Below, piece by piece: positions 6,001 through 42,357 of a stretch of DNA of 62,867 nt. The notes below the pieces were generated by a model. That model searched no databases and was not told where the DNA came from. It saw only the letters and a list, made by a program, of their open reading frames with translations. Made by a program: the position numbers and the translations under genes. This DNA comes from Mayamaea pseudoterrestris (lineage: Eukaryota): positions 186,001 to 248,867 of the forward strand of contig BROI01000034.1 of NCBI GenBank assembly GCA_027923505.1, in the 5' to 3' direction. Numbering within the stretch: the stretch's first letter is position 1; the number at the start of each line of letters is the position of its first letter.

Positions 6001-6720
6001 TGCTGTGACAAGTTGTCACCAAATACATTTCCATCCCCTGAGACACCCGCCAAGCCAACCATCTTGTTATGCAGCCCGAAAAATGATGTTGGCCCTTGGT
6101 ATTAGCACTACAGGGCTTGCTGTAGGGGCGTTTGAATGTCATGGCATCTGCGGGCTGAGACTGGTGACAAGTAGTCACCAAATACATTGCCATCCCCTGA
6201 GACACCAGCCAAGCCTACCATCTTGTAGCGCAGCTGGAATAATGATGTTGGCATGATTCTGATGTAATTTGGCCACCTACAGGGCCTGATGTAGGGGCGT
6301 TTGAATGTCATGGCATCTGCGGGCTGAGACTGGTGACAAGATGTCACCAAATACATTGCCATCCCCTGAGACACCAGCCAAGCCTACCATCTTGTAGCGC
6401 AGCTGGAATAATGATGTTGGCACCATTCTGGTTTAATTTGGGCACCTACAGGGATTGCTGTAGGGGCGTTTAATATGTAATGGCATCTGCGGGCTGAGAC
6501 TGGTGACAAGATGTCACCAAATACATTGCCATCCCCTGAGACACCAGCCAAGCCTACCATCTTGGCTTGGCCTGACGATGTTGTCATTCTGGGTGTAATT
6601 TGGGCACCTCTACAGGGCCTGATGAAAGGCGTTTGAATGTCTGTGGCATCTGCGGGCTGAGACTGGTGACAGTTGTCGCAAATACATTCTGCCATCCCTG
6701 AGACACCATTGACTACCATC
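1..6720 (+). repeat. 169-bp satellite, subfamily A (array runs off the window start)
   Basis: Head-to-tail monomer GACTGGTGACAAGTTGTCACCAAATACATTGCCATCCCCTGAGACACCAGCCAAGCCTACC...GGGCACCTACAGGGCTTGCTGTAGGGGCGTTTGAATGTCACGGCATCTGCGGGCTGA with 169-bp period (the repeated 88-aa ORFs are spaced 169 bp apart). Near-identical to ~3700, indel-rich afterwards. Right boundary is approximate and strand is an arbitrary orientation label. Confidence 0.97.
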
Positions 6721-12700: not shown

Positions 12701-13942
12701 GAGACACTAGCCAGGCATACCATCTTGTAGCGCAGCCTGAACAATGATGTTGGCACCATTCTGGTGTCATTTGGGTGTATACATGGCCTGCCAAAGGGGT
12801 GTTTGAATGTCACGGCATCTGCAGGCTGAGACTAGTGACAAGTTGTCACCAATACCATTGCCGTCCCCTGAGACACTATCCAGGCATACCATCTTGTAGC
12901 GCAGCCTGAATAATGATGTTGGCACCATTCTGGTGTCATTTGGGTGTATACATGGCCTGCTGTAGGGTTGTTTGAATGTCACGGCATCTGCAGGCTGAGA
13001 CTGGTGACAAGTTGTCACCAATATCATTGCCGTCCCCTGAGACACTAGCCAGGCATACCATCTTGTAGCGCAGCCTGAAAAATGATGTTGGCACCATTCT
13101 GGTGTCATTTGGGTGTATACATAGCCTGCTGTAGGGTTGTTTGAATGTCACGGCATCTGCAGGCTGAGACTGGTGACAAGTTGTCACCAATCACATTGCC
13201 GTACCCTGAGACACTATCCAGGCATATCATCTTGTAGCGCAGCCTGAATAATGATGTTGGCACCATTCTGGTGTCATTTGGGTGTGCTGTAGGTGTGTTT
13301 GAATGTTAGGGCATCTGCAGGCTGAGACTGGTGACAAGTTGTCACCAATCACATTGCCGTCCCCTGAGACACTAGCCAGGCATACCATCTTGTAGCGCAG
13401 CCTGAATAATGATGTTGGCACCATTCTGGTGTCATTTGGGTGTATACATGGCCTGCTGTAGGAGTGTTTGAATGTCACGGCATCTGCAGGCTGAGACTGG
13501 TGACAAGTTGTCACCAATATCATTGCCGTCCCCTGAGACACTAGCCAGGCATACCATCTTGTAGCGCAGCCTGAATAATGATGTTGGCACAATTCTGGTG
13601 TCATTTGGGTGTATACATAGCCTGCTATAGGGGCATTTGAATGTCACGGCATCCGCGGGCTGAGACTGGTGACAAGTTGTCACCAATATCATTGCTGTCT
13701 CCTGAGACACTAGCCAGGCATACCATCTTGTATCGCAGCCCGGAAAATTATGTTAGCACCATTCTGGTGTCATTTGGGTATATGCTTGGCCTGCTGTAGG
13801 TGTGTTTGAATGTCACGGCATCTGCAGGCTGAGACTGGTGACAAGTTGTCACCAATATCATTGCCGTCCCCTGAGACACTAGCCAGGCATAGCCGTTGCT
13901 TGCCACCTGCTGTGGGTGTGTTTGAATGTCCACCGGCATCTG
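6721..13942 (+). repeat. 169-bp satellite, subfamily B
   Basis: Same period and core, with fixed diagnostic changes: CAATATCATTGCCGTC, ACTAGCCAGGCATACC, GTGTCATTTGGGTGTATACATGGCCTGCTG. Confidence 0.95.
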
Positions 13943-13966
13943 GGATCACCATTCGTGCCGATCCCG

Positions 13967-14279
13967 TTGCAGGATGCGAACGAAAACAGCGAAAATCGGG
14001 CAAGTCACACCGAATGTCCGATAGGGTGACACAGCGGCACTCGCGGCTCACCACAGCCTCACGATCGCGTGATGCGTGGCAGCGACGGCTTCGAAGCGAT
14101 TCAACGAGCATATTGCTGAAACTAGTGCGATATAGAGTAGAAACAAGCAGACTTACTAAGCTTGAAGAGTTAAGAAAGCGATTTATTCGTCTCTCGTATT
14201 GTAGCAACTGCAAGCTTGGATTGGCCATCCAAGGACAGCTACAAGCGAAAGGTGCAACAATTTGATTTACAAGTTACAA
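13967..14279 (+). repeat. Copia-1 5' LTR (TTGCAG...TTACAA)
   Basis: Direct repeat of 20223-20535. Confidence 0.93.
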
Positions 14280-14295
14280 GATTAACACTGTCTTG
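14280..14295 (+). promoter_or_regulatory. Copia-1 primer-binding site GATTAACA-CT-GTCTTG
   Basis: Abuts the 5' LTR. The GATTAACA core is shared with the PBSs of Copia-2 and Copia-4. Confidence 0.75.
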
Positions 14296-14428
14296 AGACT
14301 CATTGCCTCGGCATAGAGACTTTATCGACGAAGAGTACTATTGATTTACGAAGTAACGTGGATGCACGTTGGTTCTTGGCCCGGAAAGTTCCGCAGGTGA
14401 TAGCAAGAACATTGTCACGACGACAACG

Positions 14429-17400
14429 ATGGCGGAAACTCGCGCGCAGAAAGACGCGGCTTTTGCGCATGTTTACGAAGAGAACGTAGGCATTTTCCAA
14501 GATCCTCAGTTCAAGGAGTTATTCGACGAACTCGGAGTAGAATCGCTTACGCAATTGATCGAGATGGAGTACGACGATTTCGCGACGAAGTGGAACGTCA
14601 CGACGACGACAACGACGACGACTGACGATGGCGACAATGTCACGCAGGAAATGAGCGAACATTCGCTAACGAAGATGAAACAACGCACGATCACGAACGC
14701 GATCGAATGGTATTTGGCGCAAGAGTCGCCGGACATCAAGACTTGGTCGCAACTGACCACCGAAACGCTGGCGACGTCCGTCACAGCAGCGAACGAGTCC
14801 AAGCGCGCAACATTGCGGCGTGGGCAGCGGAAGCCGGAGCGGAAACCTCCAGCGAAGGAAAGCGAAACGGAATCCAGAAGGACGAATCCAAGGACTCCAC
14901 GCTAACGAACGAAGCGCGAGTAGCCGACTCGCCCGACAAGGTGCCACCGACGCGTGGGCGTGGCGGAAAGCAGTCACCGACATCCGTACTGGACCTCGGC
15001 GACGACGAAGACGACGAGAAGTATTCAGACCAATTTACGAAGTCTATCAAGTTCTCGGCGAAGGATTGTAAAGAAATGAAGCTGGATTCCTCGTGGAAAC
15101 AGTGGATTTCCGAGTTGAAAGTCATCGCTACATTGCACGACTTCCACGAAGTCTTTGACGACGATTATGACCCGAAAGAAAAGGGACCGAAGGAACAGAA
15201 GGCGTATGCAAAGAAGAATGTGTTTGTATACAGGATCTTCCTCACGCACTGTCGAACTCCGTCTGCATCACTCGCAGTACAGCAGTTCAAGAAGACGATT
15301 GACGGACGCGAAGTCTACCAACGATTGTGAACGCGATACGAAGAAGGCGCTACTGCTCACATCGAGAAGGAACGCGCGCGAACGGAACTGCAGGGAATGC
15401 GGCTGACCGAGAAGTGGTCACGGCCGACGATCGAATTTCTCGCACTGTTCTACAAGAAAGTCATCTGGCTGCTCGAAATGGACGCAGAAGCTCTGACAGG
15501 TTTACAACGATACGACATGCTACGCGATGCTTTCTCCGAGCACACTGGATTCAGCGCATCGCTAGCAGGTTTTGACGGAATGATTGCCATCAAGAAACAC
15601 ATGGGGCAACACGATTCGGAAGACAATTTCGCGCAGTTGTACGCGCACTTAGAAGAGTGCTGCATCAAGTATGACAAGAAACACCCATCGACGACGAAGA
15701 CTAAGCGCACAATCAATCAAGCGCAGTCTAGTGGAACGAAAGGAGGCGGCGGCGGCAATGGCGGCGCGACTCCAAGCGGCTTATCGGCGGAACGATTTGC
15801 AGCGATCATGAAGAAACCTCACGCAAGCGTGAAGGATGAAGTCTGGTTGGAGATGAAGTTCGATCAGTGAAAGCAGTTGAAGGACAAGCGTGCGACGGCG
15901 CCCAAGACACCCGAAAATGGATGGCGACCGCGCAACCAACGAGGCACGGCTACGACGCAAACGCAAGTCAACGCGGCGCATCAAGAGCGTCACGCGACGG
16001 AATCTGTAGCGAACGATCACGCAAGCGTTCCTGGCACGATTAATATTCAGCCAGGCAATAGTGGAATGTCAGTCCAAACGGCTGCACGATCGGTTCTGCA
16101 AGCGAATAATGCGAGTACTACAACTCAGCAAGTGACAGGATCGTTGACGACTGATAACACCGGACGAGGTACATTCAGCTTCAACATGCATCGTCGTATG
16201 CGCGTCAATCGCGCACACTACGAGCGGATCAACGAAGGCGCGCTCATCGACAGCGGCGCGAACGGAGGCTTATGCGGAGGAGACATGCTCGTCGTTTCGG
16301 AAACAAACGCCGAGGTGGATGTGACTGGTATTGACGATCATATTGTCCCAGCTCTCAAGATTGGCACTGCAGCTGGACTGACAAAGACCCTTAGTGGCGA
16401 AACCATTCTGCTTTTGTGTCACCAGTATGCTTTAAAGCGAGACGGACCAACGATTCATTGCCCGAATCAATTGCGCGCAATGGGACATCGTGTCGATGAT
16501 ATTCCGACCATGTTTGGCGGAACGCAACAAATTACGACGAACATTGGAGGCTACGTTTTGCCATTGGCGATTCGCGATGGCCTGGTGTACTTGGACGTGA
16601 CGAAACCCACGTTCGATGATTTGGATAAGTATCCGACTGTCATCATGACGTCGGACGTGCCGTGGGACCCAACTGTTTACGATGTCGAGCACGCGCACGA
16701 CGATTTCGACGAACGCGATCACGATTATGGATCTTTCGACGAACGATTCGACGATGACGGTATCACGCACCGCAATCGTCACACGCCGACACGCACTGGC
16801 GACGAACTTGACGTACTGATCAATCGGTGCGTGCGACACGCTCAGTTTTCACGCGTTAATTTGCGGAAGCTACGAAGCAAGGAACCGGACTATAATGCTC
16901 TTCGGCCATACCTCGGATGGGTCCCGACTGAGCGAGTTCAACAGACTTTACGTCACACGGAAGCATGGTATCATCTCAGCGAACATCCGCGATTACCATT
17001 TCGACACCTCACGAAATCACGATTTCCGGCCGCGAACGTTCAGCGGTTGCGCGAACTATTCGCCACGGACACGATACACTCTGACACGCCAGCTTTGGAT
17101 GATGGAATTCTAGGGCATGGGGGAGCTACTAAGATGCAGCTCTTTGTTGGACGAGAAAGTTTTTACACGCGCGGCTACCCGATGAAGTCGGAGAGCGAAA
17201 TGTCAAACGCGTTAGAGGATTTTATCCGCGAAGTGGGTGCTCCTAACGGACTGCTCAGCGACAATGCCAAGTCGGAGACTGGCAAGGCTGTGAGGGATCT
17301 CTGTCGGATGTACAATATTCCTCAAGTGACCACAGAACCGGGTCATCCAGAACAAAATCCATGCGAACGTCACACGTCGCACATTAAGCCAATGATGGAG

Positions 17401-20205
17401 AACCTCCAGCGAGATTCGGGTTCGCCAGGCCATTGCTGGGTTTTGCTGATTAAATTCGTAATCATGATTCTGAACGTCCTCGCAACGAAATCGCTGGGAT
17501 GGCGCACTCCAACGGAAGTTGCGTTCGGAAATTTGCCGGATATTTCGCCTTTGTTACATTTCAAGTGGTGGGAACCGGTCACGTTTGAGGCGCAGGGGAG
17601 TTTTCCCTCGGCGGTACGATCTGGCAACGGCCGATTCGTGGGCATAGCAGAGAATAGCGGTCCGCACATGACTTTTCTCGTTCTAACGGACGACACGCTT
17701 CAGGCGATTCCGCGCTCCAACGTGGTCTCGCGCAGCTACTTGTTACCACGAGAGTTGCCTTCCTTCCCTGAGTCTGGAGGGGAGATTTCTGAAGAAGCTA
17801 CACGCGCAAGCGAGCGAAATTTTGAAACTCCAGATCTTGCGACAGGACGCTACCATAGCACGAATGCGACAGAAAGTAGTCACGACAACTACGAAGGAAA
17901 CGACGACGAAACGATTCCGATGGCGAACCACGCCAACGTACCAGCAAAGTTCTTCAGAAGGGCTGAGCAAGAATCAGGGAATAAATGCCCTCTGTTCTCT
18001 CCAAGCGAACTCATCGGACGCACGTTCGTAAGGGAACACGAAAACGGTCAGAAAATGCGAGCGACTGTATGCGAATATATCGAAGTACGCGATAACGAGC
18101 TACTCGAAACGACGAAAGGTTTCTTGATCCAGATGGGAGAGGAGCCAGCGAAAGACTTAATAAGTTACAACGAACTGTCGGATTTAATCGAACGACAGAT
18201 GGACGAAGATATACGAAACGATCCGGCGACTCAGTGGGTATTCACGAAGGTAATCGGACACGAGCTTAATTTGAAACCGAACGATCCGACATACAAAGGA
18301 AGTTCAAGTAACGTTCTCGTCGAATGGACTGACGGAACGACGACGTGGGAGCCTCTCGCGATCATGAAGAAGGACGATCCGATAACGATCGCAGAGTATG
18401 GACTCAAGCACGGCTTACTCGACAAGCCAGGATGGAAGCAGCTGGAACATTACACTCGGAAGCGAAAGAAGTTTCAACAGATGGTGACAGCAGCGAAATG
18501 AAAATCGAAAGCAAACGGCGTACGCTACAAATTCGGCGTAAGGTTGCCGCGCAATTATAAAGATGCGAAAGCTCTCGACGAGATCAACGGCAACACGCTG
18601 TGGACGGATGCGATTCGAACGGAATTAAATCAGATAAATGATTACGACACGTTCGCAGATCAAGGAGTCGGTAAGGTTATGCCGGCGCCATGGAAACGAA
18701 TAAACGTGCACATGATATTCGATGTCAAGCACGATTTGCGACGGAAAGCACGACTCGTCGCAGGAGGACATATGACAGAGCCGCCGAAGGATTCAGTTTA
18801 CTCGGGCGTTGTGTCATTGCGAAGTCTACGAATGGTAGCGATGTTAGCGGAACTCAACGGTCTGGAACTGTGGGCAGCTGACGTCGGCAACGCATACTTG
18901 GAAGCGAAAACGAAAGAGAAGGTTTATATCGTGGCAGGTCCGGAGTTCGGGGAGCTCGAGGGTCACACGCTCATGATCGTGAAGGCATTATACGGTCTTC
19001 GCACGTCAGGCGCACGCTGGCACGAACACTTTGCAGACACGCTCCGCGACATTGGCTTCACGCCGTGTATCGCAGAACCGGACGTGTGGATGCGCGATAA
19101 AGGCACGCACTACGAATACGTTTGTGTGTATGTCGACGATTTAGCGATAGCGATGAAGAATCCGAAGGAACTAACGGATCTTTTAATTGAGAACTACAAC
19201 TACAAGTTGAAGGGTGTCGGTCCATTGGCATATCATTTGGGCGCAGACGTTTGGCGAGACGACGACGGCGTACTCTGCTTCGGAGCGAAGAAGTACGTCA
19301 CAAGACTATTAGCGAATTACAAAGAAATGTTCGGCGAGGAACCGCGACCGCAGACAAGTCCACTACGCGACGGCGATCATCCGGAACTCGACGAAACGAA
19401 AGAACTTGACGACGACGGAATTGCGAAGTATCAATCGATCATTGGTGCGTTGCAATGGGCAGTAAGTTTATGTCGATTCGACATTCACTGCGCTGTCATG
19501 ACTATGGGGAGATTCCGAGCTGCGCCACGAGCGGGGCACTTGGAACGGTTGAAGCATATTTGCGGATACTTACGACGATACCCGGATGGAGCGATTCGAT
19601 TCAACGTTTCGATTCCAACGGACGAGCGATACGCGACAGTTGACAAGATGGATTGGGATTACAGTGTGTACGGCAAGATCTGCGAAGAGCTTCCGTGGAA
19701 CATGCCCACGCCGCGTGGCAAGGCGGTGCGAATGTCAACGTTTGAAGATGCAAACCTGTACCACGATTACACGACGGGACGGGCAGCGATGGGCATGCTA
19801 CACATGTTGAATGGGACAGTCGTCGATTGGTTTTCGAAACGCCAAGCGACGGTCGAGACGGCGACGTACGGCTCGGAGTTTGTAGCAGCAAGAGTGAGCA
19901 CGGAGCAGATCATGGATCTCCGCTTCACGCTACGCATGTTGGGAGTTCCGCTCGACGGACCTTCATGGATGTTTGGAGACAACAAGTCGGTAACGCAAAG
20001 CAGCAACTTACCGCACTCTAGTCTGACGAAGCGACACAATGCACTGGCATTTCACCGTGTACGCGAGGCGATTGCGGCGGGAATTATTAATTTCAACCAC
20101 ATCATGGGAACGACAAACCCAGCGGATGTACTTACCAAATTTCTTCCGCGGGCTACGGCAAGCAAGCACTTAAAGAACCTGCTCTTCAAGGAATCGAACT
20201 ATTAG
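14429..20205 (+). pseudogene. Copia-1 gag-pol (one frameshift near 14780-14900, in-frame TGA at 15328, 15868, 18499)
   Basis: PR LIDSGANGG; IN ATDT...SDNAKSE...QNPCE; chromo-like VLVEWTDGTTTWEPL; RT KARLVAGG, ADVGNAYL, KALYGL, YVDD; RH FEDA, GSEF, GDN, NPADVLTK. The ORFs starting at 14707, 15397, 15877 and 18544 share one frame. Confidence 0.93.
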
Positions 20206-20222
20206 GTATGACTTGAGGGGAG

Positions 20223-20535
20223 TTGCAGGATGCGAACGAAAACAGCGAAAATCGGGCAAGTCACACCGAATGTCCGATAGGGTGACACAGCGGCACTCGC
20301 GGCTCACCACAGCCTCACGATCGCGTGATGCGTGGCAGCGACGGCTTCAAAGCGATTCAACGAGCATATTGCTGAAACTAGTGCAATATAGAGTAGAAAC
20401 AAGCAGACTTACTAAGCTTGAAGAGTTAAGAAAGCGATTTATTTGTCTCTCGTATTGTAGCAACTGCAAGCTTGGATTGGCCATCCAAGGACAGCTACAA
20501 GCGAAAGGTGCAACAATTTGATTTACAAGTTACAA
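20223..20535 (+). repeat. Copia-1 3' LTR
   Basis: Follows PPT GAGGGGAG and matches the 5' LTR. Confidence 0.93.
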
Positions 20536-22781: not shown

Positions 22782-23897
22782 CTACAAGATGGTAGGCTTG
22801 GCTGGTGTCTCAGGGGATGGCAATGTATCTGGTGACAACTTGTCACCAGTCTCAGCCCGCAGATGCCGTGACATTCAAACGCACCTACAGCAAGATCTCT
22901 AGGTGACCAAAATACACCAGAATGGTGCCAACATCATTATTCTGCCTGCGGTACAAGATGGTAGGCTTGGCTGGTATCTCAGGGGATGGCAATGTATTTG
23001 GTGACAACTTGTCACCAGTCTTAGCCTGCAGATGCCGTGACATTCAAATGCCCCTACAGCAAGCCCTGTAGGGGCCCGAAATACTCCAGAATGGTGCCAA
23101 CATCCTTATTCAGGCTGCGCTACAGTATGGTAATCTTGGATGGTGTCTCAGGGGATGGCAATGTATTTGGTGACACTTTGTCACCAGTCTCAGCCCACAG
23201 ATGCTGTGACATTCAAACAACCCTACAGCAGGCCTGGTAGATGCCCAAATTACACCAAAACAGTGCCAACATCATTAGTTAGGCTGCGCTACAAGATGGT
23301 AATCTTGGCTGGTGTCTCAGGGGATGGCAATGTATTTGGTGACAACTTGTCACCAGTCTCAGCCCACAGATGCTGTGACATTCAAACACCCCTACAGCAA
23401 GCCCTGTAGGTGCCCAAAATACACCAAATTGGTGTCAACATCATTGATCAGGCTGCGCTACAAGATGGTAGGCTTGGCTGGTGTCTCAGGGGATGGCAAT
23501 GTATTTGGTGACAACTTGTCACCAGTCTTAGCCCGCAGATGCCGTGACATTCAAACGCCCCTACAGCAAGTCCTGTAGGTGCCCAAAATACACCAAAATG
23601 GTGCCACCATAATTATTCAGGCTGCGCTACAAGATGGTAGTCTTGGCTGGTGTCTCAGGGGATGGCAATGTATTTGTTGACAACTTGTCACCAGTCTCAG
23701 CCCGCAGATGCCGTGACATTCAAACACCCCACCAAATTGGTGTCAACATCATTCGCCCCTACAGCAAGCCCTGTAGGTGCCCAAAATACTCCAGAATGTT
23801 GCCAACATCATAATTCAGGCCGCGTTACAAATTGGTAGTCTTGGCTAGTGTCTCAGGGGATGGCAATGTATTTGGTGACAACTTGTCACCAGTCTCA
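22782..23897 (-). repeat. 169-bp satellite (subfamily A-like), inverted relative to 1-13942
   Basis: Reverse complement of the monomer (CTACAAGATGGTAGGCTTGGCTGGTGTCTCAGGGGATGGC...), about 6.5 copies. Confidence 0.96.
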
Positions 23898-24293
23898 TAA
23901 TTTAGGGTGTTGGCCACCCCCATCCTGCAGACCATTCCATGGTGTAGGCCTCCAGGCAGTCCATTTTGCACCATGGCAAACCATCCTCATGTCAATGGCA
24001 CACCCTGGACATGTTTTGCTTGACTCATGGGTTTGTTGGGTGATCAGGGCAGGGGCATTGTAGTGGTATGATTCCATAATTTGGGGTGTTGGCCACACCC
24101 ATCTTGCAGACCATTCTGTAGTGTAGGCCTCCCGGCAGTCCGTTTTGCACCATTTCAGACCATCCTCATGTCAATGGCACACCCTGGACATGTTTTGCCG
24201 GACTCATTGGGTTGTTGGGTGGCCAGGGCATGGGGCATTGTAGTGGTATGATTCCATAATTTGGGGTGTTGGCCACACCCATCTTGCAGACCA
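23896..24293 (+). repeat. 180-bp satellite, left part (interrupted by Copia-3)
   Basis: ATTCCATAATTTGGGGTGTTGGCC recurs at 24071 and 24251 (period 180). Confidence 0.93.
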
Positions 24294-24805
24294 TGCTGAA
24301 GCCTCGTTTGTGGCGGCCTTCACTTCAGGTTTGAGAAGCCTAGCTGACGAACAACCTGACATCATCACAACCCTAACACATGACGTGAAAGGAGATTGAC
24401 CCGAAAGATACTATGACCCTGATTCAGACCCGGAGGAGACCCCGGATGTTAGAGGTCGCATTTTACCAGAAATAAGGAGAACAAACTTACGGCCTGATTC
24501 GATAAGGAGAATGCCCGGAAGAACGGAGATTCGAACCGTAGCCGAGTACCAGGCATCTACAGCGAGGGAACAACCAGGAACCTCCATCTGCCGAGATGCA
24601 GCTATGAAAGGCCTGATGTACACGAGCTCTCCCGAACATTCGGTTCCGACAATCAGACGGAACTAATTACGCACGACTAGATTTTAACATTCGAGCAAAC
24701 AAGCTCACTCTCCGAAATAACAAAGCTGTTACACCGTAGCATCTTTAGAGGGTCGCAAAGCATTTTAGTCAACACGGATCCGTCAACGAGATCTGAGTCC
24801 AAGCA
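24294..24805 (+). repeat. Copia-3 5' LTR
   Basis: Direct repeat of 34402-34913. Confidence 0.96.
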
Positions 24806-26384
24806 AAGTCGCGACTTGCCGTTGGACCAGAGCAAGTAAGTACCGATCGTCGAACGAACGAATTGAACGAATCGCCGAGTGAGTGTCCGGACGCGGAATC
24901 AACCACCTGTGATTAAAGAGAACGAAAGATCAGAACGGAAAAGAGAGGCAAGAAAACGAGCCCTTTTCATCTTAAACAGGCAATCAAACGAACGAGCAAA
25001 CGAACGTACACGAACGAGTAAGTGAATCGCCGCGCGAGTAACGAACGAGAATCCAAAACGAGAACGAGAACGAATTTCATTGCAAGTGTTGAAAGAGAGC
25101 GAATAGCGTTGTGAGACAACCCTTTTGCTTATATTTGACACAGATACACCAACCGACAAAAGTACCGTCATCCTTGCCTGCCGCATATCTGCCGCCGCAA
25201 GAGCATCAACGAAGCGACCGTCAACGCCGTCGCCCAACGAATCCATCATTACCATCACCGAAAGATCCAACGAAGCCATTCCGGCTGCTTACACGTCAGC
25301 AGCTATCGATCAACCTTCTCGATCAACAGAAGGAGCCAATCAAGTGAGAATCGCAAACGTCCATCAAGAACAAGTGACGAGCGATCCATCCTACTTTCTA
25401 CCCGACACGCCATTCGTCACTCGACAGAATCGAGTCCAGTCACACACTTGCCCTTGTCTTGTCTGCGAAAGCAACAGACGAGTTCCAAGACCTCCAGTGG
25501 CACGCCCCGACCCAGTCGCATCTGCTCCGATAGACGACTCAAGAGAAGTTCAACAAGAGTTAGACGAGCTTTTCCACCAAGTTTCACCGACACGAACAGT
25601 TGTTTCGCATTCCTTACCAAGCGATTCAAACTCCTGGACTGACGAGCATCTTCAGCAAGTCCTTGACGGCTTAGACGACAACTGGCAGCCTTGCGCCACT
25701 GATCGTCGACGCATACTCGATCCGTTCTACCGATCCGAGTACATCGAACCAACACCAACAACGAGACGCATTGACGACGAAGATTTGCAGCGAAACGATC
25801 GCTTCCGTCAACAGCAGCAGCATCAGTATCGCCGAGCACAAGAGCAACGCCGTCAAGCTCATCAACGAATCGACCAAGCTCGAAGAATCCAACGAACGCA
25901 ACAAGTTGAGCAAGTACATCGTCGAGCAACGCAACAAGTCCACGCTCCACGAAGAACTTACGCTCAAGTAGCAAGAAACAACAACCGACGCCAACAAATC
26001 AACGAAGCACGACCACAAGTTCCATATCAACATCGCCTGGAACGCTTGCAAAGAGAAGTACGCAGTCTTCAATTGCAAGTCAATCGTCAACAGCAACAAC
26101 AGCACCAACAAACGTACCGACGAGCTCAACAAGTGAGCGAGCAACGAAACAATCAAAACCGTCAAAACCCGCGTCAACGACACGTTCGTCCACGCTCAAC
26201 GAGGTTCGCTACAGTCAACAGATCGTTAGCTAACCAACATCACGAGACACGTCATCAACGTCTGACCGCCAACCGTCAAGTTAGCTATCAGAACCGAGAT
26301 TACCGCCAACAGAACAACGAAAGTCGACAAGTCCCTCCACGCCGACACTCATCTACAGGAACAACAGTCGGATACTTCCTTTAG
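24774..26384 (+). CDS. Copia-3 putative ORF0: Met-free Gln/Arg-rich protein. Predicted exons 24774-24835, 24980-25017, 25144-26384 (446 aa if started at ACG 24774)
   Basis: Stop-free frame 25125-26384 with no Met. Two GTAAGT...CCCTTTT..ACAG intron candidates keep the frame open back to 24681. Start site and splicing are inferred. Confidence 0.55.
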
Positions 26385-26461
26385 ACAAAGAACAAACAAC
26401 ATCTATCAAGACATAACAACGCCGACACTTATCTACCCGAAGAATACAAAACAAATTCAAC

Positions 26462-29400
26462 ATGATGACCGTAGAGACCCTTTGTCTCAAGACACCCAAG
26501 CATCCAAACACCGCCGAAGGTCATTCATCCTGGTTCAACGTTTTAGTAGCAATTGCTGAAGCCGGAGGATGTGTTAGACCGATTACAAGTACGAGAGATC
26601 CTCATCTACCAGTTACCGAAAGAGAGGAAGATTTGCCAGTTGTTTTAGACGTAAATGACGGCAATGTCAATCAACAAGAAGCAGACGCCTCGGTTGCGGC
26701 ACGCGCCGAAGCTGAAGCTGCAAGAACACACAACAGCAAGCTGATGAAGTTCCTTACCATCGCCCTGTCAACTAACGAGCTGAGCGGCATCATCAACAAC
26801 GCCAAGACCGCCGGCTACCCAAGAGGAGAAGCACATCTAGTCCTTGCCATACTTGAACGACGTTTCCAACCGAATCGAGTAATCGCCAATACCTTGTTCC
26901 TCCAACAACTTGGAAGCCTCTCTATGGCTAGACCCAACGAAAACCCAAGAACGTTTCTAGATCAAATGTTTGCAGCATCATCACAGTTTGGCCAAGAACT
27001 TACCGGACCGATCCTTTTCAGCAACATTATGAACAAGGCCCCGTCACCATATCGCGTTGCATTAATGACTCTCCAAGAGCGGACGCCCGACAATCCTTTA
27101 ACAGTGGAACAAATCGAACGACAAATGGCGTCCACCTACATCACATCTTTCGCAACCAAAAATGCCTTGGATAGAGATGAAGACCATCGCGAAATGGGAT
27201 TATATGCAGACAACAACAATCGTCCTCCAAGAAACTATCAAGACCGAGACCGACCGCGAGACCAAAACCGCGGCCAGTATCGAGGCAACAACGGAGGCAA
27301 CAACGGATATCAACAAGGACGACAAGGCCAATACTACCAACAGCAACCGCAATTCGAATCAAGACACTTCAATGGCCACTGCAACTGCTGTCGCAAGTGG
27401 GGCCATAGAGAATGCAACTGTTGGGAGCGCGAAGAAAACGCCGACGCAAGACCGTCGAATTGGGTTTCTTGTTTGACAAGTGAGGAACACCAAGCCATTC
27501 GAGACCGAGACAATCGTTATCGACTCGACCGATCGCCAGAGCGACCAAGGGAGTCGTATCCAAGACGTCAAGAGCCAGAGCAACGACGTGGAAATGATCG
27601 CCAAGGAAACGACCGAAACGATCGCAATGATTCACGTCGACCTGAACGACAACGCGAGACCACAAGACGTGACGACCGCCGCCGCGACCAAGGCAGTGAA
27701 AGACGAAGCCAACAACAAGACACTCGAAGAAGAGATGATAGAGATCGCAATCGTCGAAGCGATAGAGACCGTCGAGATCGAGGCGATCGTCAACGTCAAG
27801 GAGGAAGGGAGCAAGCAATGCCCGCCGTTCGAGAAGGATTTCTCCGTCCAGGCGGACGCATACCAGACCGACTGCCGCAAACACAAGAGCGCGCAAGACC
27901 GAACGAAGAAGCTTCATTGTCAACCATTGGAACGGGTGAATATCTGTTATCAAGCATTCGCGTTCGTCATAGCGTGAGTCGAGCAGCATCAAACGGAGCA
28001 TACACGTTAACTGACAGCGATCATCTACAAGACGACGACACATCACCCGCACCTCAAGCGACACGGCTCAATCGTCCACGTAAAACAAAATCCAAGCAAG
28101 TATCCAACAACAAAATATCATGGACACCTGGAATGCCTTGGAGCTTGTGTGAATCTGACACGGAAGACGAAGATGAATCAGACAACGAATGCAGCACTAT
28201 CACCGCAGTAGCAAACAATTACAGCTGCACTTTCGGCAAAGAGCCCATTGTTCCACCACATCTTCGATCCTTCGTAGCATACCCTGCTCTCACAAGCTTT
28301 GACAATGACCAAGAGACCGTCAATATCCCAGCATCAAGCATGGCAACGACTGAAGATGACACTGAAGAACCAAGTGACGCGCCAAAGGAAATTGACTGTC
28401 CACCGCATGAACCAACAGAAGATCCAACCGAAGAGCCAACTGACGATCCTACCGAGGAGCATACAGAAGCATCCTACCCTGACCATAACGCACTAGAAGA
28501 AGAATGGTTAGCGGCTGGTTATGTGCAATGGCGAGGAAGTTGGATACCTCGAGAAGACTTGACGCCAAGCGCTATGGAACGCCTCGCTCAGCACTTGCCG
28601 TCCTTTGCTCCTCCACAACTAAACATACCGACACCGCTGGTCTACACGTTTCCACCAGACGAGGAACCGCCACACCATTTCATACAAAGCATTTTAAATG
28701 TTGAGCCACTTCTGTACACCATGTCGCAAGCAGTTGTCAGCACACTGGAAGAACTCGAAGAACACTTCGGCACTTGTGTCGACAGTGGGTTCACACATCA
28801 AGAAGCCATCGAATCAACTTGCGGATTGTACCACTTCTTCACCGGTTTGCGAGTATGGGATACAGAACGAGTAGAAGTCTCGTACGCACAGTCAGACGAA
28901 GCTTTACTCCCCACAACAACGTCGGATGAAGCTTTCTTGCCCACGACTGCAACAACAGAAGCGATGACTAAAACTCAGTATGATTCGGACGATCCGGACG
29001 CCATTGTTGAGTATACCAATTCAAGCGACTCAAGCGCCAGCAGTTTCAACAGCAACGACACGTTATACTTTCACGCGCGGATTCCTCGACCACCATGGGA
29101 TCACCTTTATCCATCACCAGAATATGGCGATGACAACGAAATCCCTCAAGAAGAATACGATGCAAACATCCAACAAGTACGCGAAGACGAAGCGAACCTT
29201 GATGACCCTGAAGCAAGACAAAGACTGTTAGTGATCGAGCGCGCCAGCACGGCACGTTTCATGGAAGAAATGGAACATTGGTTTGCTCAAGCCATTCAGC
29301 GTCAAGGTCACCCAATTTCAATGGAACAATTTGACGAAGCCATCAACTTTGGCATAGAACAAGAAGTCGCACGTCGCGTCTGCGAAGGCACAACAAGAAC

Positions 29401-32400
29401 CACATACAGCATCGCGCAAATCCTTCGTGAAATCGTCGTTGGATATGTAATGGACTTGTCCATGCGCCGTCTTTGCAAATCGACATGCCGTGGGTACTTT
29501 CCCTTCAAGAACAACCGCAACCCAGACGACAGCGATGATGAAGACCATGTCAATGACACCTCAATGTCTGCCCAACTTGCACGAACGCAGTCCTACATTG
29601 CGAATGCGTTAGACCGTCGAGACGAGGAAGCAGCCGCAGCAGCTGCAGCCAACAACTCTTCAGGGAACTCCAACACGAACAACGCATCAATTTCAAGGAC
29701 CGACAGCACGCTCGCCCTCACAACCACCTTTAATGACTTTGCATTGAGCGCCGTCGTGCGGTCCCTCGGTGTTCCAAATAATATCGACCTTCTATCACAC
29801 CCTGAAATCTTCATTGGCGACACCGGAGCCACTATTGATACGACACCATACCCCGACGGACTCTTCGACACATCTACCATGCACAACGAATCCATAACCA
29901 TGGGTAACCAGACCGTCGCGGATATTCAAGCCATTGGAAAGCTCCGAGTCGTAGTCTGCAATCACACTGGCAAGACCCTTTACCCGGCTGTTCTACAGCA
30001 CGTCGCATACGCCCCTGATTGTGGATACAATTTGTTCAGCATCACTCAACGAATGAAACATGGATGGAGTCTTCACGGCGACGCCGGTCGCATGGCACTA
30101 ACCAAGCCAGGCAATCAACCAATCGTTTTCGACATTGTCATCAACACGCGCAAAGGACAGCTCTACTGCATCCTTTTCAAACGTATCTTTACACCGCCAA
30201 AAGAGACTCCCAAACCACGCATTGAATACGCCTTTGCCAATCCGGCGACTCGACAACTCCCACCACGTCGCCTTTCCTACATGCAAGCACATCAGCTTCT
30301 CGGCCATCAAGGGCCACGCACCACACTAGCAATTGCTGAGCACCTCAAATGGGAAATCACCGGCTCTGCCAAGGATAAATGCACACCATGTACGATCGGC
30401 AAGGCCAAGCGCCGTTCGTTTCCGCAGGTATCGTCTCGCGAGCGCGCCACAGTCCCCGGCAAACATTTGTTCCTTGACCAAACTTCTTTCCGTGTTACCA
30501 AGATTGATCCGAAACTACAACAAGGCCTCCGTCGCCAATGGACATTAATAGTCGACGAGAAGACTGGCTTCAAGCACTCGTTGTTTCATCGCACCAAAGA
30601 CGCCATGGCCGAGCACGTCTGTGAATTGTTCGCTCAATGGTTCCACCAAGGAAAACCGATTAAGTATCTCCGAATGGACAACGCCGGTGAAAACAAGTTG
30701 CTTGCCAAACGCATGTTCAGTTCTGACTGGCAATTCAACATCAACATCGAATGGACTTCCGTCGACTCGCCGCAACAAAACGCCCCAGTCGAAGTCAGCT
30801 TTCCAACGTTGACCAACCGCACTCGAGCCAACATGTACAGCGCCAACATACCGCCTCTTCATCGCTTGTATATTGGACCCGAAGCATTCGACTATGCCAC
30901 CAAGCTTGACGCCCTTGCCATGATAGACGTTAACGGCGTCCTTGCCACTCGACACGAGCACTTTCACGGCGTTGCTTCGCCGATTATTGGAAACCTTCAA
31001 ACATTTGGAGAGGCTGTCACTGTTGTACTTCCCGGTATTCGCACGCATCTATCCGATAAAGGTTTTCAAGGCATCTTTGTCAACTACAGCAGCAACCATC
31101 CGAAAGACTGCTATCGAGTTTACAACCCGGAAACCAAGCGCACACACGACGTTAAGCACATCACTTTCTTGAAACGTCCCTACTTTCAACGCCGCACACG
31201 TCGTGAAATCGTCCCACCAGCTATCGTTGATGTTACATCTGAAAGCTCCGACTCCAGCAGCATGATAATTGAAGTCATTCAAGCCGACGCACCTCACCCA
31301 CTTACGTGTTCCACCACCGCAACACCGATATCCAATCCGCCTGCCCCAGCGGACGTCCAAGCTGGGGAGGTACTAGATCCGAACGCCGAAACTGACGAAT
31401 TTCCAAACGCGGATGACGAGCTTGAACTTCCCGCTGCGCCAGACGCCCCTGCAGACCAAGGCAATCCGCAAGAATCAACAGCAGCGTCTGATGCGCCGAC
31501 CGATCCAATCAACAACAGTGCACAACCGTCAGCCGCACCAGCAGGAAATAGGGCCACCGAAGCAGCACGACGCCACATCAGAAGGGTCAGAGACGAAGCT
31601 GAACGTCGACGACGAGGACATGTCCAGTACACAAGATCAGGACGACCGTCAAGACCACCGACAAGATATGGCCAAGACGAAGATCAAACCCAGTACACAA
31701 GATCTGGAAGACCGATACATCCACCTGCACGTTATGGTCAAATCGCTGCTGACATTGATCCACTCGAAGCTGATGAATACGATTATGAGTCTGAAAACGA
31801 GTCCGACGCCGATCGCGAGTCCTACTCAAGTTCATCGACGGCATCAACTTATTCGCGTACAACAAGTAAATCAGCCGACGAACGCAACAGTTACGGCACA
31901 TGCAGATACATGAATTACTCTGAATCATCGACGAGTCGATCAATCGTTAGCGAACGAAGCATTCGAAGCATAAGCGAGTCATTCAATTCAACTGACAGTG
32001 ACTGCAACAGCGACGACAGCTCAAGCGACGACAACGCTTTGCTTCATTTGACCAACGATGAGTTCCAGCAATTAACTCTGGAAGAACAAGACGAAGTTAT
32101 AGCATACTATTCGAGCAGTGAAAACGATGGAAGAATCCAAATGCCATCATGGTTGACGACAGCCCACACAAACGACGACGAATTCGACAGCCAGTACGAC
32201 ATTGAAAGCGCATCATCTGCCCAACGAAGCGCACCTCTCTCGTCAATCGACGTCGAAACTGTTACAACCACCCGAGCATCGAATGTTGATAGCAGCAAAG
32301 CTCCAAGCCAAGAACTCGGGAAGGGTACGACCGACACAGAAGAGTCATCCATTGAAATAATAGCAACATGCCCAGAACCGAGTGGAGCAGAAGATCAAGC

Positions 32401-34774
32401 CGAAAATAAATCGCACCTCGACAGTCATCTTGAAATCGACAACGGATACAACCAGAACGAACTCGAACAACCAAACCGGTCCGCTCAATCTAAGCACAAG
32501 GAATTTATGCTCGACCATGAGGACCCAGCATTACTACGCAACCTCATCTTCAACGATGTACCAACAAGTATTCGAGTCATAATCGACGAACGCAGTGTTC
32601 CTCCATGCCTACCGACCGATTCAAACTTCGAGTACGCATTTCCAGCATACCAAGCAACACCCACCGCAACAACTCCGACCGACGCCTTCGACAAACACAT
32701 AGAAGACATCTTCAGCGACGAAACACCTGATACTGTTGAATATGCTTTCGTAGGAGCAGGCATTGGCGGAGGATTTGTCACCACCGACGAACTACACGCA
32801 GTAAAATTCAAAGACGCCGTCAATGGTCCGGAGCGCGAACACTGGTTCAAAGCGATAGAAAAAGAGCGCAAGAATTTGGAAAGCCGAGAAGTCGCTATCG
32901 CTGTTCCGCGCAGCCAAGTACCAAGAGACGCCGCACTATTGACAAGCAAGTGGGTATTGCGAAAGAAATCCGACGGAACCTACAAAGCAAGAATAACAGC
33001 ATGAGGATTCCAACAACGCGACGGCGAGCATTACGACAGTCAATCAATTTCGTCGCCAGTCGCTTCACCAACCACAATAAAGCTCATCACAACAATCTCA
33101 GTAATGACAGGATGCGTTCCGCATATAGTCGACATCAGTGGAGCCTTTCTATACGGCACATTTGACGACGACCATCACGTTTACATGGAGATTCCAGAAG
33201 GCTTTCGCGAGCACTACCCGCCCGGACATGTTTGGAGACTTGTCCGCACACTATATGGAACGAAACAAGCCGCAAGAGCGTTCTGGGACAAGCTGTTGTC
33301 AGCACTCCGCAAGATGGGATACGCAAGAAGCGTTGCCGACCCGTGCCTATATTTCAAGTGGGTCAAAGGGCAACTAATCCTAATCGTGTCATGGATCGAC
33401 GACTTATACATCAGCGGACCAGACGACCTCATCAAAGCCACGAAGATAGAACTGAAAGACCATTTCGCATGTGAAGATTGCGGACCGATCAAGGAGTACA
33501 TTGGCTGCAAAGTCGAAATAGGCGACAACTACCAACGATGGACACAACCAGTCCTACTTCAAAGCTTGAAAGACGAATTTGACATACCGACAAAAGGAAA
33601 AGAACCAAGACTGCCTGCACTACCTGGCAGCATCCTACCAAAACTCGACGAAGACGAAGAACTAAGTAACAGACAGCAAACGATCTTCCGTTCAGCAAAC
33701 GGCAAGCTTCTATACCTCGGACGATGGTCAAGACCCAAGGCCCAGTACGCCATTAATGCCAACTGCCGCTACATGAAACAAGCAGGCAAGACACACATGG
33801 CAGAAACAAAACGCACAATGAGATACCTACTATCAACACCAAATAGAGGAAGACTATTCCTACCGACACGAAAGTACCAAGGTCCCAACCATCTATTCCG
33901 CATTCGAGGAATGAGTGATTCGGATTACGCAAAAGACCCCGAGAAGCGCCGCAGCCAAACAGGAGGCATCACCTTTGTAGAAGACGTCCCTGTCTCCGAG
34001 ATATGCCATCTTCAAAAGCTCATATCGCTCTCCGTAACGGAAGCCGAAATGGCCGCAGGAACTGAGACCGCTCAAGACATGCTTCACGTCAAGAACCTAC
34101 TTGAATCAATTGGCTTACAAGTGGAGCTACCAATGATTCTGGAGATCGACAATAGCGGAGCAGTTGATATCGCCAACACTTGGAAGACAGGCGGAAGAAC
34201 AAGACACCCAGACGTACGCCACAACTTCATCCGAGAGCTTAAGGAAGCAGGCATCATACGAGTGAATTGGATTGAAACCAACTTAAACACAGCAGACATT
34301 TTCACCAAGAACCTGGACCAAGTTACCTTCAACCGCCACGCACGAGTACTGGTTGGAGAGGACGAATACATGCCTGAGTCCATCCTCCCCAACGGGAAGG
34401 GTGCTGAAGCCTCGTTTGTGGCCGCCTTCACTTCAGGTTTGAGAAGCCTAGCTGACGAACAACCTGACATCATCACAACCCTAACACATGACGTGAAAGG
34501 AGATCGACCCGAAAGATACTATGACCCTGATTCAGACCCGGAGGAGACCCCGGATGTTAGAGGTCGCATTTTACCAGAAATAAGGAGAACAAACTTACGG
34601 CCTGATTCGATAAGGAGAATGCCCGAAAGAACGGAGATTCGAACCGTAGCCGAGTACCAGGCATCTACAGCGAGGGAACAACCAGGAACCTCCATCTGCC
34701 GAGATGCAGCTATGAAAGGCCTGATGTACACGAGCTCTCCCGAACATTCGGTTCCGACAATCAGACGGAACTAA
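26462..34774 (+). pseudogene. Copia-3 gag-pol, intact except one in-frame TGA (33002-33004) in RT
   Basis: Zinc knuckle CNCCRKWGHRECNC; PR IGDTGAT; IN AHQLLGH..CTPC, MDNAGE, QNAPVE; RT KARITA*GF, DISGAFL, LYGTKQA, WIDD; RH SDSDYA, TEAE, IDNSGA, NTADIFTKNL. The frame continues into the 3' LTR. Confidence 0.93.
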
Positions 34775-34913
34775 TTACGCACGACTAGATTTTAACATTC
34801 GAGCAAACAAGCTCACTCTCCGAAATAACAAAGCTGTTACACCGTAGCATCTTTAGAGGGTCGCAAAGCATTTTAGTCAACACGGATCCGTCAACGAGAT
34901 CTGAGTCCAAGCA
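34402..34913 (+). repeat. Copia-3 3' LTR
   Basis: Follows the PPT and is followed by TSD GACCA. Confidence 0.96.
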
Positions 34914-36348
34914 GACCATTCCATGGTGTAGGCCTCCCGGCAGTCCGTTTTGCTCCATGCTAGACCATCCTCATGTCAATGGCACACCCTGGACATTTTT
35001 TGCCTGACTCATTGGGTTGTTGGGTGGCCAGGGCATGGGGCATTGTAGTGGTATAATTCCATAATTTGGGGTGTTGGCCACACCCAGCCTGCAGACTATT
35101 CCGTGGTGTAGGCCTCCCAGCAGTCAGTTTTGCACCATGTCAGACCATCCACATGTCAATGGCACACCCTGGACATGATTTGCCTGACTCATTGGGTTGT
35201 TGGGTGGCCAGGGCAGGGGGCATTGTAGTGGTATGATTCCATAATTTGGGTGTTGGCCACACCCATCTTGCAGACCATTCCATGGTGTAGGCCTCCAGGC
35301 AGTCCGTTTTGCTCGATGCTAGACCATCCTTTTGTCAACGGCACACCTTCGACATGTTTTGCCTGACTCATTGGGTTGTTGGGTGGCCAGGGCATGGGGC
35401 ATTGTAGTGGTATGATTCCATAATTTGGGGTGTTGGCCACACCCATTTTGCAGATGGTGTAGGCCTCCAGGCAGTCCGTTTTGCACCATTTCAGCCCATC
35501 CTCATGTCAATGGCACACCCTGGACATGTTTTGCCTGACTCATTGGGTTGTTGGGTGGCCAGGGCATGGGGCATTGTAGTGGTATGATTCCATAATTTGG
35601 GGTGTTGGCCACACCCATTTTGCAGATGGTGTAGGCCTCCAGGCAGTCCGTTTTGCACCATTTCAGCCCATCCTCATGTCAATGGCACACCCTGGACATG
35701 TTCTGCCGGACTCATTGGGTTGTTGGGTGGCCAGGGCATGGGGCATTGTAGTGGCATGATTCCATAATTTGGGGTGTTGGCCACACCCAGCCTGCAGACC
35801 ATTCCATGGTGTAGGCCTCCCGGCAGTCCGTTTTGCTCCATGCTAGACCATCCTCATGTCAATGGCACACCCTGGACATTTTTTGCCTGACTCATTGGGT
35901 TGTTGGGTGGCCAGGGCATGGGGCATTGTAGTGGTATAATTCCATAATTTGGGGTGTTGGCCACACCCATCTTGCAGACCATTCCATGGTGTAGGCCTCC
36001 CGGCAGTCCGTTTTGCTCCATGCTAGACCATCCTCTTGTCAACGGCACACTTTCGACATGTTTTGCCTGACTCATTGGGTTGTTGGGTGGCCAGGGCATG
36101 GGGCATTGTAGTGGCATGATTCCATAATTTGGGGTGTTGGCCACACCCAGCCTGCAGACCATTCCATGGTGTAGGCCTCCAGGCAGTCCGTTTTGCATCA
36201 TGTCAGACCATCCTCATGTCAATGGCACACCCTGGACATGTTTGCCTGACTCATTGGGTTGTTGGGTGGCCAGGGCACGGGGCATTGTAGTGGTATGATT
36301 CCATAATTTGGGTGTCGGCCACCCCCATCTTGCAGACCATTCCATGGT
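34914..36348 (+). repeat. 180-bp satellite, right part (~8 copies; two adjacent 170-bp deletion variants at ~35410-35750)
   Basis: Resumes in register after the TSD (GACCA|TTCCATGGTGTAGGCC). Confidence 0.94.
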
Positions 36349-36940
36349 AGCTGGAGCAGGAGGGGCGGGCGGTAGGTGCGGGCATCCCATCGCGTATGGT
36401 GGCCATTGCCTGCTGCAACTGGCGACAGAGGCGAGTTAATTCGGTGGTTTGCGCGAGGTTGGCGTGATCCTGGTAGCAAGCTTGGCCAGCCGTGCAATGC
36501 TCCAAGCGCTTGTCGTTGGCCTTGTTGAAGCGGACCTGGAGATTCTCCATGGTGCGATCCACCTCATTGACATCGCGGTCGTAGACAGCGAGATCGGCGG
36601 CAAACACGCCACTGTTGATGAGGACGAGGAGCGTGTCGTGGATCTGTTGTTCCGGTGGAATGGGCGTGCCGGCATCGTCGGCAAAGTCGTTGATGTCGGT
36701 GATGCAACTCCCAATGCGCTCAATGGGAACGTTGGGATTTCATGGCGTGAGGAGACGAAGAACGTTGTCTTTGCGCTCTTGGTTGGAAACGCGTCTGTAG
36801 GTAGCTGTGAGATGTGTGACATCTGTAGAATGGTGATGTTGGCATAGAGGGAATGACGGTTCTGGAGGACGGAATAGTAGTCTTCGTCAAGCGCGACAAG
36901 TAAGCAAGCCTTGAGTGCAGTGTGGGCAACGAGCATGGGA
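36349..36940 (-). pseudogene. Internal gag fragment of another diatom-type LTR retrotransposon
   Basis: With one frameshift and one TGA it translates as YANITILQM/THLTATYRRVSNQERKDNVLRLLTP*NPNVPIE..INDFADDAGTPIPPEQQI..LINSGVF..RTMENLQVRF..TAGQACY. This resembles the PWDP..PIE type gag of diatom copia as I recall it. No LTR or TSD. Confidence 0.65.
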
Positions 36941-37473
36941 AGAATCTGCAACTTGTGGTGTTGGCCATACCCACAGTGGAGGCCGTACCCATGGTGTCAG
37001 CCTCCAGGCAGTCCTTTTTGCACCATTTGAGACTATGCACCTGTCAATGGCATACCCTGGACATGTTTTGCCTGACTCGTTGGGTATTTGGGTGGCCAGG
37101 GCATGGGGCGTTTGACAGGTCAGAATCCACAACTTGTGGTGTTGGCCATACCCACAGTGGAGGCCGTACCCATGGTGTCAGCCTCCAGGCAGTCCTTTTT
37201 GCACCATTGAGACTCTGCACCTGTCAATGGCATACCCTGGACATTGTTTTATCTGACTTATTGGGTATTTGGGTGGCCAGGGCATGGGGCGTTTGACAGG
37301 TCAGAATCTACAACTTGTGGTGTTGGCCATACCCACAGTGGAGGCCGTACCCATGGTGTCAGCCTCCAGGCAGTCCTTTTTGCACCATTTGAGACTCTGC
37401 ACCTGTCAATGGCAAATGATTGGTCATGTTTTGCCTGCCTCATTGGGTATATGGGTGGCCAGGGCATGGGGCG
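36941..37473 (+). repeat. 181-bp satellite variant (3 copies), diverged relative of the 180-bp family
   Basis: AGAATC recurs at 36941, 37122 and 37303. Shares GCCTCCAGGCAGTCC, TGTCAATGGCA.ACCCTGGACATGTTTTGCCTGACTC and GGGTGGCCAGGGCATGGGGC with the 180-mer. Confidence 0.92.
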
Positions 37474-41670: not shown

Positions 41671-41838
41671 TTGTTGGCAGCCTCAAAGTTTTGTTGGCAG
41701 CCTCATGGGTTTGTTGGCATTCTCAAGGTTCTGTTGGCAGCCTCATGGCTTGATTAGCAGCCTCAAGGTTTTGTTGGCAGCTTCATGATCTTGTTGGCAG
41801 CCTTATGGATTTGTTGACAGCATCAAGACTTTGTTGGC
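41671..41838 (+). repeat. 20-bp minisatellite TTGTTGGCAGCCTCAWGGNT, 8 copies plus a partial ninth
   Basis: Units start every 20 bp from 41671 to 41831. The ninth is cut by Copia-4 sequence. Confidence 0.9.
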
Positions 41839-42357
41839 TACGACGAGCAGCGTACCCGAGGGGAGTGACAAGTCGCAGAGCGGCGAAGTCAAGAGCCCAA
41901 ACCCTAATTAGCTTGTGTCAAGTCCGCAGCTGTCGTACGTGACATGTGAATGAAGAAAGTGCGCAACCGTCATGTGGATGCGTTGTATGAATGGAATGAC
42001 TGATTACGACTGATGTAATGTGATTGAAAGAAACGGATTGATCGGATGATCTTCCGAGTGGTCGATGTAGCGATGTAGCGATAAGCTCACAATATAGAAC
42101 TACAAGTTTGCGACGAGAGTGCAGTTGTATTTGTGTAGTGGCGAGCGCAAGACTATTCGACGAGCCATCTCCATCAAATGCTGTACAGACCGTGGCCAAG
42201 GAACCTGTATTGGAGCTTTTTGGAGGTAAGACATTGACTGCGAAATCGTCAACGGTGTTAGATTAACATTTCAGTGCTTTGAGAGCAAGAACGAGCGAGG
42301 GAGCTATTGTGACACATTCGTCTGCAGCGAGTCCGATTCCTCTGATCAACCTCCACC

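Follow-up and report, generated by a model that had tools for sequence, protein, structure and literature searches.

How do ribosomes reach the gag-pol gene of a retrotransposon when a leader of about 1.8 kb seems to lie ahead of it, and does the long open frame within that leader encode a protein of its own? The question is raised by a Copia-type element at positions 24294-34913 of a 62,867-nt stretch of the Mayamaea pseudoterrestris genome (GenBank assembly GCA_027923505.1, contig BROI01000034.1, positions 186,001 to 248,867 of the forward strand). This stretch is referred to here as the window, and all coordinates are those of the window. The sequence suggests that the element makes two proteins from one RNA by a virus-like trick. 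In the reading that we favour, the leader is kept free of AUG so that scanning ribosomes arrive at gag, and a real open reading frame without an AUG (ORF0) is started within it from a weak near-cognate codon; we give this combination roughly an even chance of being right. Although strong and clean, the sequence signal comes from one element of one genome. The features on which the argument depends are these:

24294..24805 (+), 5' long terminal repeat (LTR), 512 bp, TG...CA, found by self-blastn
24617..26461 (+), ATG-free tract, interpreted as the genomic RNA's 5' leader, with a presumed transcription start at or after its left edge
25107..26384 (+), ORF0, 425 Met-free codons and a TAG; N half of ordinary complexity with an HTCPCLVC motif, C half Q/R-rich
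26462..34774 (+), gag-pol frame, 2770 codons, starting at an ATG in the context CAAC-ATG-A
34402..34913 (+), 3' LTR, found by self-blastn

The ATG-free leader

The last ATG before gag lies at 24616 and the next is the gag ATG itself at 26462, a gap of 1846 nt with no ATG in any forward frame. The next-longest ATG-free gaps in the window measure 369 nt on the forward strand and 363 nt on the reverse strand. The initial annotation of this DNA, which had reported no ATG between 24619 and the gag ATG, was thus correct. It had put the expectation at about 29 ATG for uniform composition and at fewer for this T-poor strand, which agrees with our computed values for 24619-26461 of 28.8 (uniform), 21.3 (base composition) and 11.8 (dinucleotides); the observed count is zero. 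For the 1845 nt of 24617-26461, the expectation is 11.7. A comparison with a composition-matched null had been set as a test beforehand. None of 5000 dinucleotide shuffles was free of ATG, and the minimum was two. ATG counts on either side are normal, with 7 against 6.3 expected in the LTR (24294-24618) and 128 against 121 in gag-pol.

The leader contains 72 ACG and 93 codons that are one transition away from ATG, and CpG is over-represented (160 against 106 expected). With so many codons a single transition from ATG, the void must be maintained and is not a stable by-product of composition. Among 40 rows of copy variants, beyond which there are 126 further variant rows, seven fall within the leader and none of them makes an ATG. 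The copies come from contigs of four sequencing runs, which show no joints at the predicted splice junctions but are DNA-like and hence have no bearing on splicing or expression. They indicate that the element family is multi-copy; one of them yielded 1864 aligned pieces, of which 582 are 90-95% alike. Contigs from three of the runs, drawn from two studies, contain the leader sequence, each piece with 1-3 differences.

The left edge of the void lies inside the LTR, 48 nt ahead of a repeated copy of the pol stop codon (24664-24666). This placement most naturally suggests that transcription of the genomic RNA begins at 24617 or later, so that the void is its whole 5' leader and the gag-pol ATG at 26462 is its first ATG. 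If the RNA starts where the void starts, it is close to certain that AUG is kept out of the leader to let scanning ribosomes arrive at gag. Selection would then act on each of the three frames between the approximate transcription start in the LTR and gag, and a scanning 40S subunit would meet the gag AUG first, 1.8 kb downstream. Neither a TATA box nor AATAAA was found in the LTR, and only three weak initiator-like matches occur there (24677, 24705 and 24729). The U3 region of the LTR contains a short direct repeat, ATAAGGAGAA, present twice at a distance of 28 nt (24474-24511), which could be a promoter element. A search of the leader against Rfam gave no match at E up to 1. RNA structure in the leader is not weaker than in gag-pol (mean -38.4 vs -41.0 kcal per 200 nt, p = 0.22).

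ORF0, an open frame without an AUG

The leader would carry a genuine extra coding frame of about 425-446 amino acids. The initial annotation had described a Met-free open frame of 419 codons at 25125-26384. Its lack of Met and its HTCPCLVC motif stand, and its extent has to be enlarged, since from stop to stop the frame spans 25107-26384 and counts 425 codons. No shuffle out of 5000 attained this length (maximum 389, 99.9th percentile 340). Across the same span, the two other forward frames are each interrupted by nine stops, at 25345, 25375, 25531, 25561, 25672, 25969, 26134, 26227 and 26263 in frame 1 and at 25112, 25136, 25640, 25664, 25700, 25772, 25907, 26231 and 26282 in frame 2.

Codon use in ORF0 resembles that of gag-pol. 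A log-likelihood trained on gag-pol in-frame versus out-of-frame codons gives +32.9 for frame 0 and -41.8 and -82.7 for the other frames, and frame 0 scores best in each 300-nt window from 25069 to 25669. At third codon positions, the N half (A.324, C.329, G.133, T.213) is close in composition to gag-pol (.317,.330,.142 and.211, respectively). On synonymous codons, frame 0 scores 48.2, compared with 44.7 (standard deviation 12) for gag-pol in-frame windows and an off-frame maximum of 31.2.

We argue that ORF0 is translated because the frame has stayed open, and gag-pol-like in codon use, within a tract that has evidently long been under selection. Since it lacks an AUG, initiation could occur only at a near-cognate codon and would involve a minority of ribosomes. 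The remaining ribosomes would leak through to gag, and a single RNA would be bicistronic by leaky scanning, as in rice tungro bacilliform virus (RTBV).

The predicted protein appears to be an orphan. The Q/R-rich tract pointed out in the initial annotation corresponds to its C half, for which long helices are predicted; the structural model is confident only for these low-complexity helices (about residues 224-278, 307-353 and 366-406). We propose a protein with a disordered N part and a long, helical, Q/R-rich C part. An origin of ORF0 as a duplicate of part of gag-pol was considered and rejected, the best BLASTP E-value being 0.41.

Intron-like units and the rival readings

Between the LTR and ORF0 lie two sequence units that resemble introns, and a candidate start codon precedes them:

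24774..24776 (+), ACG as a candidate near-cognate start, A at -3, G at +4, in the LTR (R/U5) and also in the 3' LTR
24823..24835 (+), TGG-led stretch resembling a primer-binding site (PBS), 17 nt behind the LTR; a candidate, with no tRNA matched to it
24836..24979 (+), intron-like unit 1, 144 nt, GTAAGT...CCCTTTT...ACAG, with frame-0 stops at 24837 and 24864
24879 (+), alternative donor GTGAGT in unit 1
24980..25017 (+), putative mini-exon of 38 nt between both units
25018..25143 (+), intron-like unit 2, 126 nt, GTAAGT...CCCTTTT...ACAG, with frame-0 stops at 25023 and 25104

Both units satisfy the GT...AG rule with a consensus donor, a pyrimidine tract and an acceptor, and they lie exactly where the initial annotation had placed them. 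GTAAGT occurs only twice in the 10.6-kb element (24836 and 25018) and CCCTTTT only twice in the whole window (24961 and 25120), each time 102-125 nt past a GTAAGT and 12-17 nt ahead of ACAG. A generic intron model (GTRAGT donor, 40-300 nt, pyrimidine run within 30 nt of YAG) finds three units in the leader, one of them with the alternative GTGAGT donor (24879), and the other 8.8 kb of the element contain none. Shuffled leaders contained at least three such units in 6 of 3000 cases and at least two in 67 of 3000. Because shuffles of the whole element give at least three in 41 of 500, the count alone is unremarkable. What stands out is the clustering of the units within 310 nt behind the LTR and the motif that they share. 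A plain tandem duplication is a possible origin of the two, which align at 65% identity, mainly via GAACGA repeats.

The lengths of both units are multiples of three, and between them they hold all four frame-0 stops that occur between 24681 and 25107. Their removal creates no ATG at any junction and leaves frame 0 open back to 24681, as had been claimed. The ACG at 24774, in the context CAAC-ACG-G and shared by both LTRs, then opens 446 codons that run to the TAG at 26382, which reproduces the roughly 446 amino acids given earlier for the spliced protein. Other near-cognate codons lie in the same frame, for example CTG 24726, ATC 25305 and ATC 25350.

The leader might instead be a plain long AUG-free 5' untranslated region (UTR), with the void serving only access to gag. 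ORF0 would then be untranslated, and its openness would come from T-poor, triplet-repeat-like sequence or be the relic of a once-coding insert. A number of observations speak for such a UTR and against a translated ORF0. ORF0 has no start codon, and no homologue was found by a word-indexed search of 5.8 billion proteins or by HMMER over 1.84 billion representatives; there was likewise no match in Pfam at E up to 10, in the Atlas or in a scan of metagenome DNA. An AlphaFold model built from the single sequence has a mean pLDDT of 54.8, which is poor, and residues 1-177 are below 50. The C half is of low complexity, triplet-like and T-poor, and such a make-up in itself disfavours stops; open frames of 107-193 codons also exist here in other frames and on the minus strand. 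On synonymous codon choice, the other frames of ORF0 reach 24.6 and 35.5, which is fairly high and means that some of the codon signal is base composition. Of the four copy variants inside ORF0 in the same 40 rows, three are non-synonymous and one is synonymous, which leans slightly against constraint and is too few for a ratio of non-synonymous to synonymous rates (dN/dS). In one run, a 1-nt deletion occurs at 25663 (depth 17.8/44.2); it is absent from the other run of the same sample. Finally, a decayed Copia relative with 43% reverse transcriptase (RT) identity (locus L001) carries 8 ATG in the only upstream sequence visible, 350 nt ahead of a gag that is itself decayed. On the other side, composition-matched shuffles never attain 425 codons, and the N half is non-repetitive, yet it is stop-free and gag-pol-like in its codon positions. 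Frames 1 and 2 have many stops across the same span, and a neutral frame 0 should have gained stops as well over long selection for an AUG-free tract. We regard the plain UTR as the main rival, a possible explanation if a somewhat doubtful one.

A more specific version of the translated ORF0 has both units spliced out, so that the ACG at 24774 in the LTR is joined to ORF0 and the 446-amino-acid protein is made from spliced RNA, while unspliced RNA is packaged. The pairing of the only two GTAAGT of the element with the only two CCCTTTT of the window, the concentration of generic intron units in the leader, the frame-preserving lengths that take in every frame-0 stop, and the A at -3 and G at +4 of the ACG all point this way. 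Against it, whole-element shuffles can yield as many generic units, the putative exon 1 (24681-24835) has no coding signal, several near-cognate codons compete with the ACG, and the CAAC context is common in A/C-rich sequence. As read from the sequence, this version is coherent and numerically correct, and we consider it unlikely. In retroviruses, the major splice donor sits in the same position, just behind the PBS, and in human immunodeficiency virus type 1 (HIV-1) U1 bound at the major donor acts in poly(A) suppression. The two GTAAGT could also, or instead, act as U1-binding sites or other RNA signals, whether to silence the poly(A) site in the 5' LTR or as marks for packaging or dimerisation of the RNA just behind the PBS. 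Under such a scheme, ORF0 could be translated or not. In its favour, the first GTAAGT is found 31 nt past the LTR, directly next to the PBS-like stretch. Against it, both donors have a matching pyrimidine run and ACAG spaced as in an intron, a combination for which a bare U1 site would have no need, and we find this explanation improbable. Chance or an assembly artefact is contradicted by the shuffle tests and by the presence of the same leader in three independent runs, and hardly deserves consideration.

The element, its setting and known systems

The element is a complete, young and nearly intact 10,620-bp LTR retrotransposon of the Ty1/copia type (Pseudoviridae). This assignment, which the initial annotation had also made, is based on the TG...CA LTRs, the 5-bp target-site duplication, the RVT_2 match and the position of integrase before RT. 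The two LTRs (24294-24805 and 34402-34913) are direct repeats of 512 bp with 99.4% identity in self-blastn, and their three differences all lie upstream of 24519. Further features were read at the ends of the element:

24289..24293 (+), 5' copy of the 5-bp target-site duplication GACCA, read from the sequence
34394..34401 (+), polypurine tract GGGAAGGG, abutting the 3' LTR
34914-34918 (+), 3' copy of the target-site duplication

A CCHC knuckle is visible in the translation of gag, and the domains of gag-pol follow the Copia order, with Pol_BBD at amino acids 1118-1201, SH3_retrovirus at 1507-1572 and then RVT_2 (PF07727, E 5.3e-33) after 2181. A single in-frame TGA (33002-33004) interrupts gag-pol just ahead of RVT_2; this copy is therefore probably RT-defective, unless the TGA is read through. 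The polyprotein (26462-34771, about 2770 amino acids) is roughly double the usual Copia size and has long low-complexity inserts, acidic, basic and Ser-rich, both between gag and protease and between integrase and RT. The pol frame extends 372 nt into the 3' LTR, where its last 123 codons and the stop occupy 34402-34774. In tblastn of the pol tail, the first 373 nt of the 5' LTR (24294-24666) repeat this coding tail, including the copy of the stop at 24664-24666. The promoter region in U3 thus shares sequence with the C-terminus of pol.

The nearest matches of the RT are metagenome proteins with 48-50% identity, and the only named one among the matches listed is from the diatom Epithemia (46%). 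A metagenome scan with gag gave no relatives, and neither did an RT alignment against viral contigs. Alignment of the RT to prokaryote genome contigs gave two loci from metagenome bins, L001 and L002, the latter too short for its leader to be compared. Both L001 (1-4544) and L002 are Copia-like polyprotein genes on contigs filed as Gammaproteobacteria and Bacteroidota bins, and contamination of the bins with eukaryotic DNA is the most likely reason for their presence there.

The insertion site, with the target duplication intact, is in a 180-bp satellite, and this satellite itself lies within 169-bp satellite arrays. The region looks centromere- or heterochromatin-like. Two other Copia-like elements occur in the window. 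Their LTR pairs measure 314 bp (99% identical) and 426 bp (96% identical), and their RT is only about 21-23% identical to that of the element at 24294-34913. In both, the open reading frame begins with an ATG no more than about 150 nt from the LTR. Because these are ordinary short leaders, the long ATG void is specific to the element at 24294-34913 within the window. The surrounding repeats are as follows:

1-13885, 22782-23730 and 37473-39664, 169-bp satellite arrays
23896-24298 and 34911-37473, 179-181-bp satellite
13966-20535 and 41836-48965, two further Copia-like elements

LTR retrotransposons generally express Gag and Pol by frameshifting, readthrough or fusion, and extra open reading frames are known mostly 3' of pol or in plant gypsy elements. 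In murine leukaemia virus, glyco-Gag starts at a CUG in the leader, upstream of the gag AUG, and is an in-frame N-terminal extension of Gag. The likeness is that of a leader-encoded protein started at a near-cognate codon, which here is only proposed. The difference lies in the frames: gag occupies frame 2, and ORF0 is read in frame 0 and ends 78 nt short of the gag ATG. The stops at 26382 (frame 0) and 26414 (frame 2) led us to reject a fusion of ORF0 to Gag, by frameshift or by a glyco-Gag-type extension.

A close parallel in mechanism would be RTBV. According to part of the source text, about 10% of ribosomes start ORF I of this virus at an AUU, and the rest scan 900 nt through open reading frames that have no internal AUG (PMC5902531). 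RTBV is likewise reverse-transcribing, and the same portion of the source describes an upstream coding region without internal AUG and a main polyprotein frame that is reached by scanning (PMC5902531). The Copia leader has the same arrangement if the RNA starts at or after 24617, being AUG-free in all frames upstream, with the downstream frame at the first AUG. In RTBV, as that text has it, the upstream frame has an AUU start, whereas in the Copia element the near-cognate start is only a candidate (PMC5902531). The viral stretch, as given there, covers about 900 nt and two frames after a shunt; that of the Copia element, as predicted from the sequence, covers about 1.8 kb and one frame. RTBV is a caulimovirus, and the present Copia LTR retrotransposon has no sequence relationship to it.

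Plant Ty3/gypsy elements offer a second comparison. Retrosat2, RIRE3 and RIRE8 ('ORF0') and Ogre (ORF1) have an orphan, fast-evolving open reading frame upstream of gag-pol, according to portions of the published accounts (PMC3485330, PMC7264820). The likeness to the Copia element is the extra orphan frame in this position, as far as these portions describe it; an AUG-free design or a non-AUG start does not appear in them, and the elements are from plants and are not Copia. Word-indexed, HMMER and Pfam searches found no homology between the Copia ORF0 and Ogre ORF1 or Retrosat2 ORF0. In Cer1 (CERV) of C. elegans, an accessory protein is made from spliced mRNA and the unspliced RNA is the genome, as set out in part of its description (PMC10309623). 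Cer1 differs, on that partial account, in being a gypsy-type animal element with no sequence similarity, and splicing of the Copia leader is only predicted. The diatom CoDi elements are Ty1/copia with the order protease, integrase, RT and RNase H (PR-IN-RT-RH); the part of their description at hand contains neither a long AUG-free leader nor an open reading frame upstream of gag (PMC2806351). A literature search of open full texts, and partly of titles and abstracts, turned up no account of a retrotransposon that has an ORF in an AUG-free leader or uses non-AUG leaky scanning.

In its boldest form, the proposal would be that a Copia element independently evolved leaky scanning of the pararetrovirus type. 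ORF0 would be made from the LTR ACG after removal of two introns, Gag-Pol would start at the first AUG, splicing would decide between accessory protein and packaging, and the AUG-free tract, at about 1.7-1.8 kb, would be the longest known for this purpose. Taken as a whole, this form has little probability of being right in every part. More generally, a Copia element with an AUG-less ORF in its leader and a 1.8-kb AUG-free scanning tract would carry leaky scanning of the RTBV type beyond plant pararetroviruses into retrotransposons. It would also serve as a natural test of the distance over which 40S subunits can scan, and bring an orphan accessory protein into Copia biology. Under the conservative reading too, a 1.85-kb UTR that is AUG-free despite 72 ACG would be an unusually clean footprint of selection on scanning.

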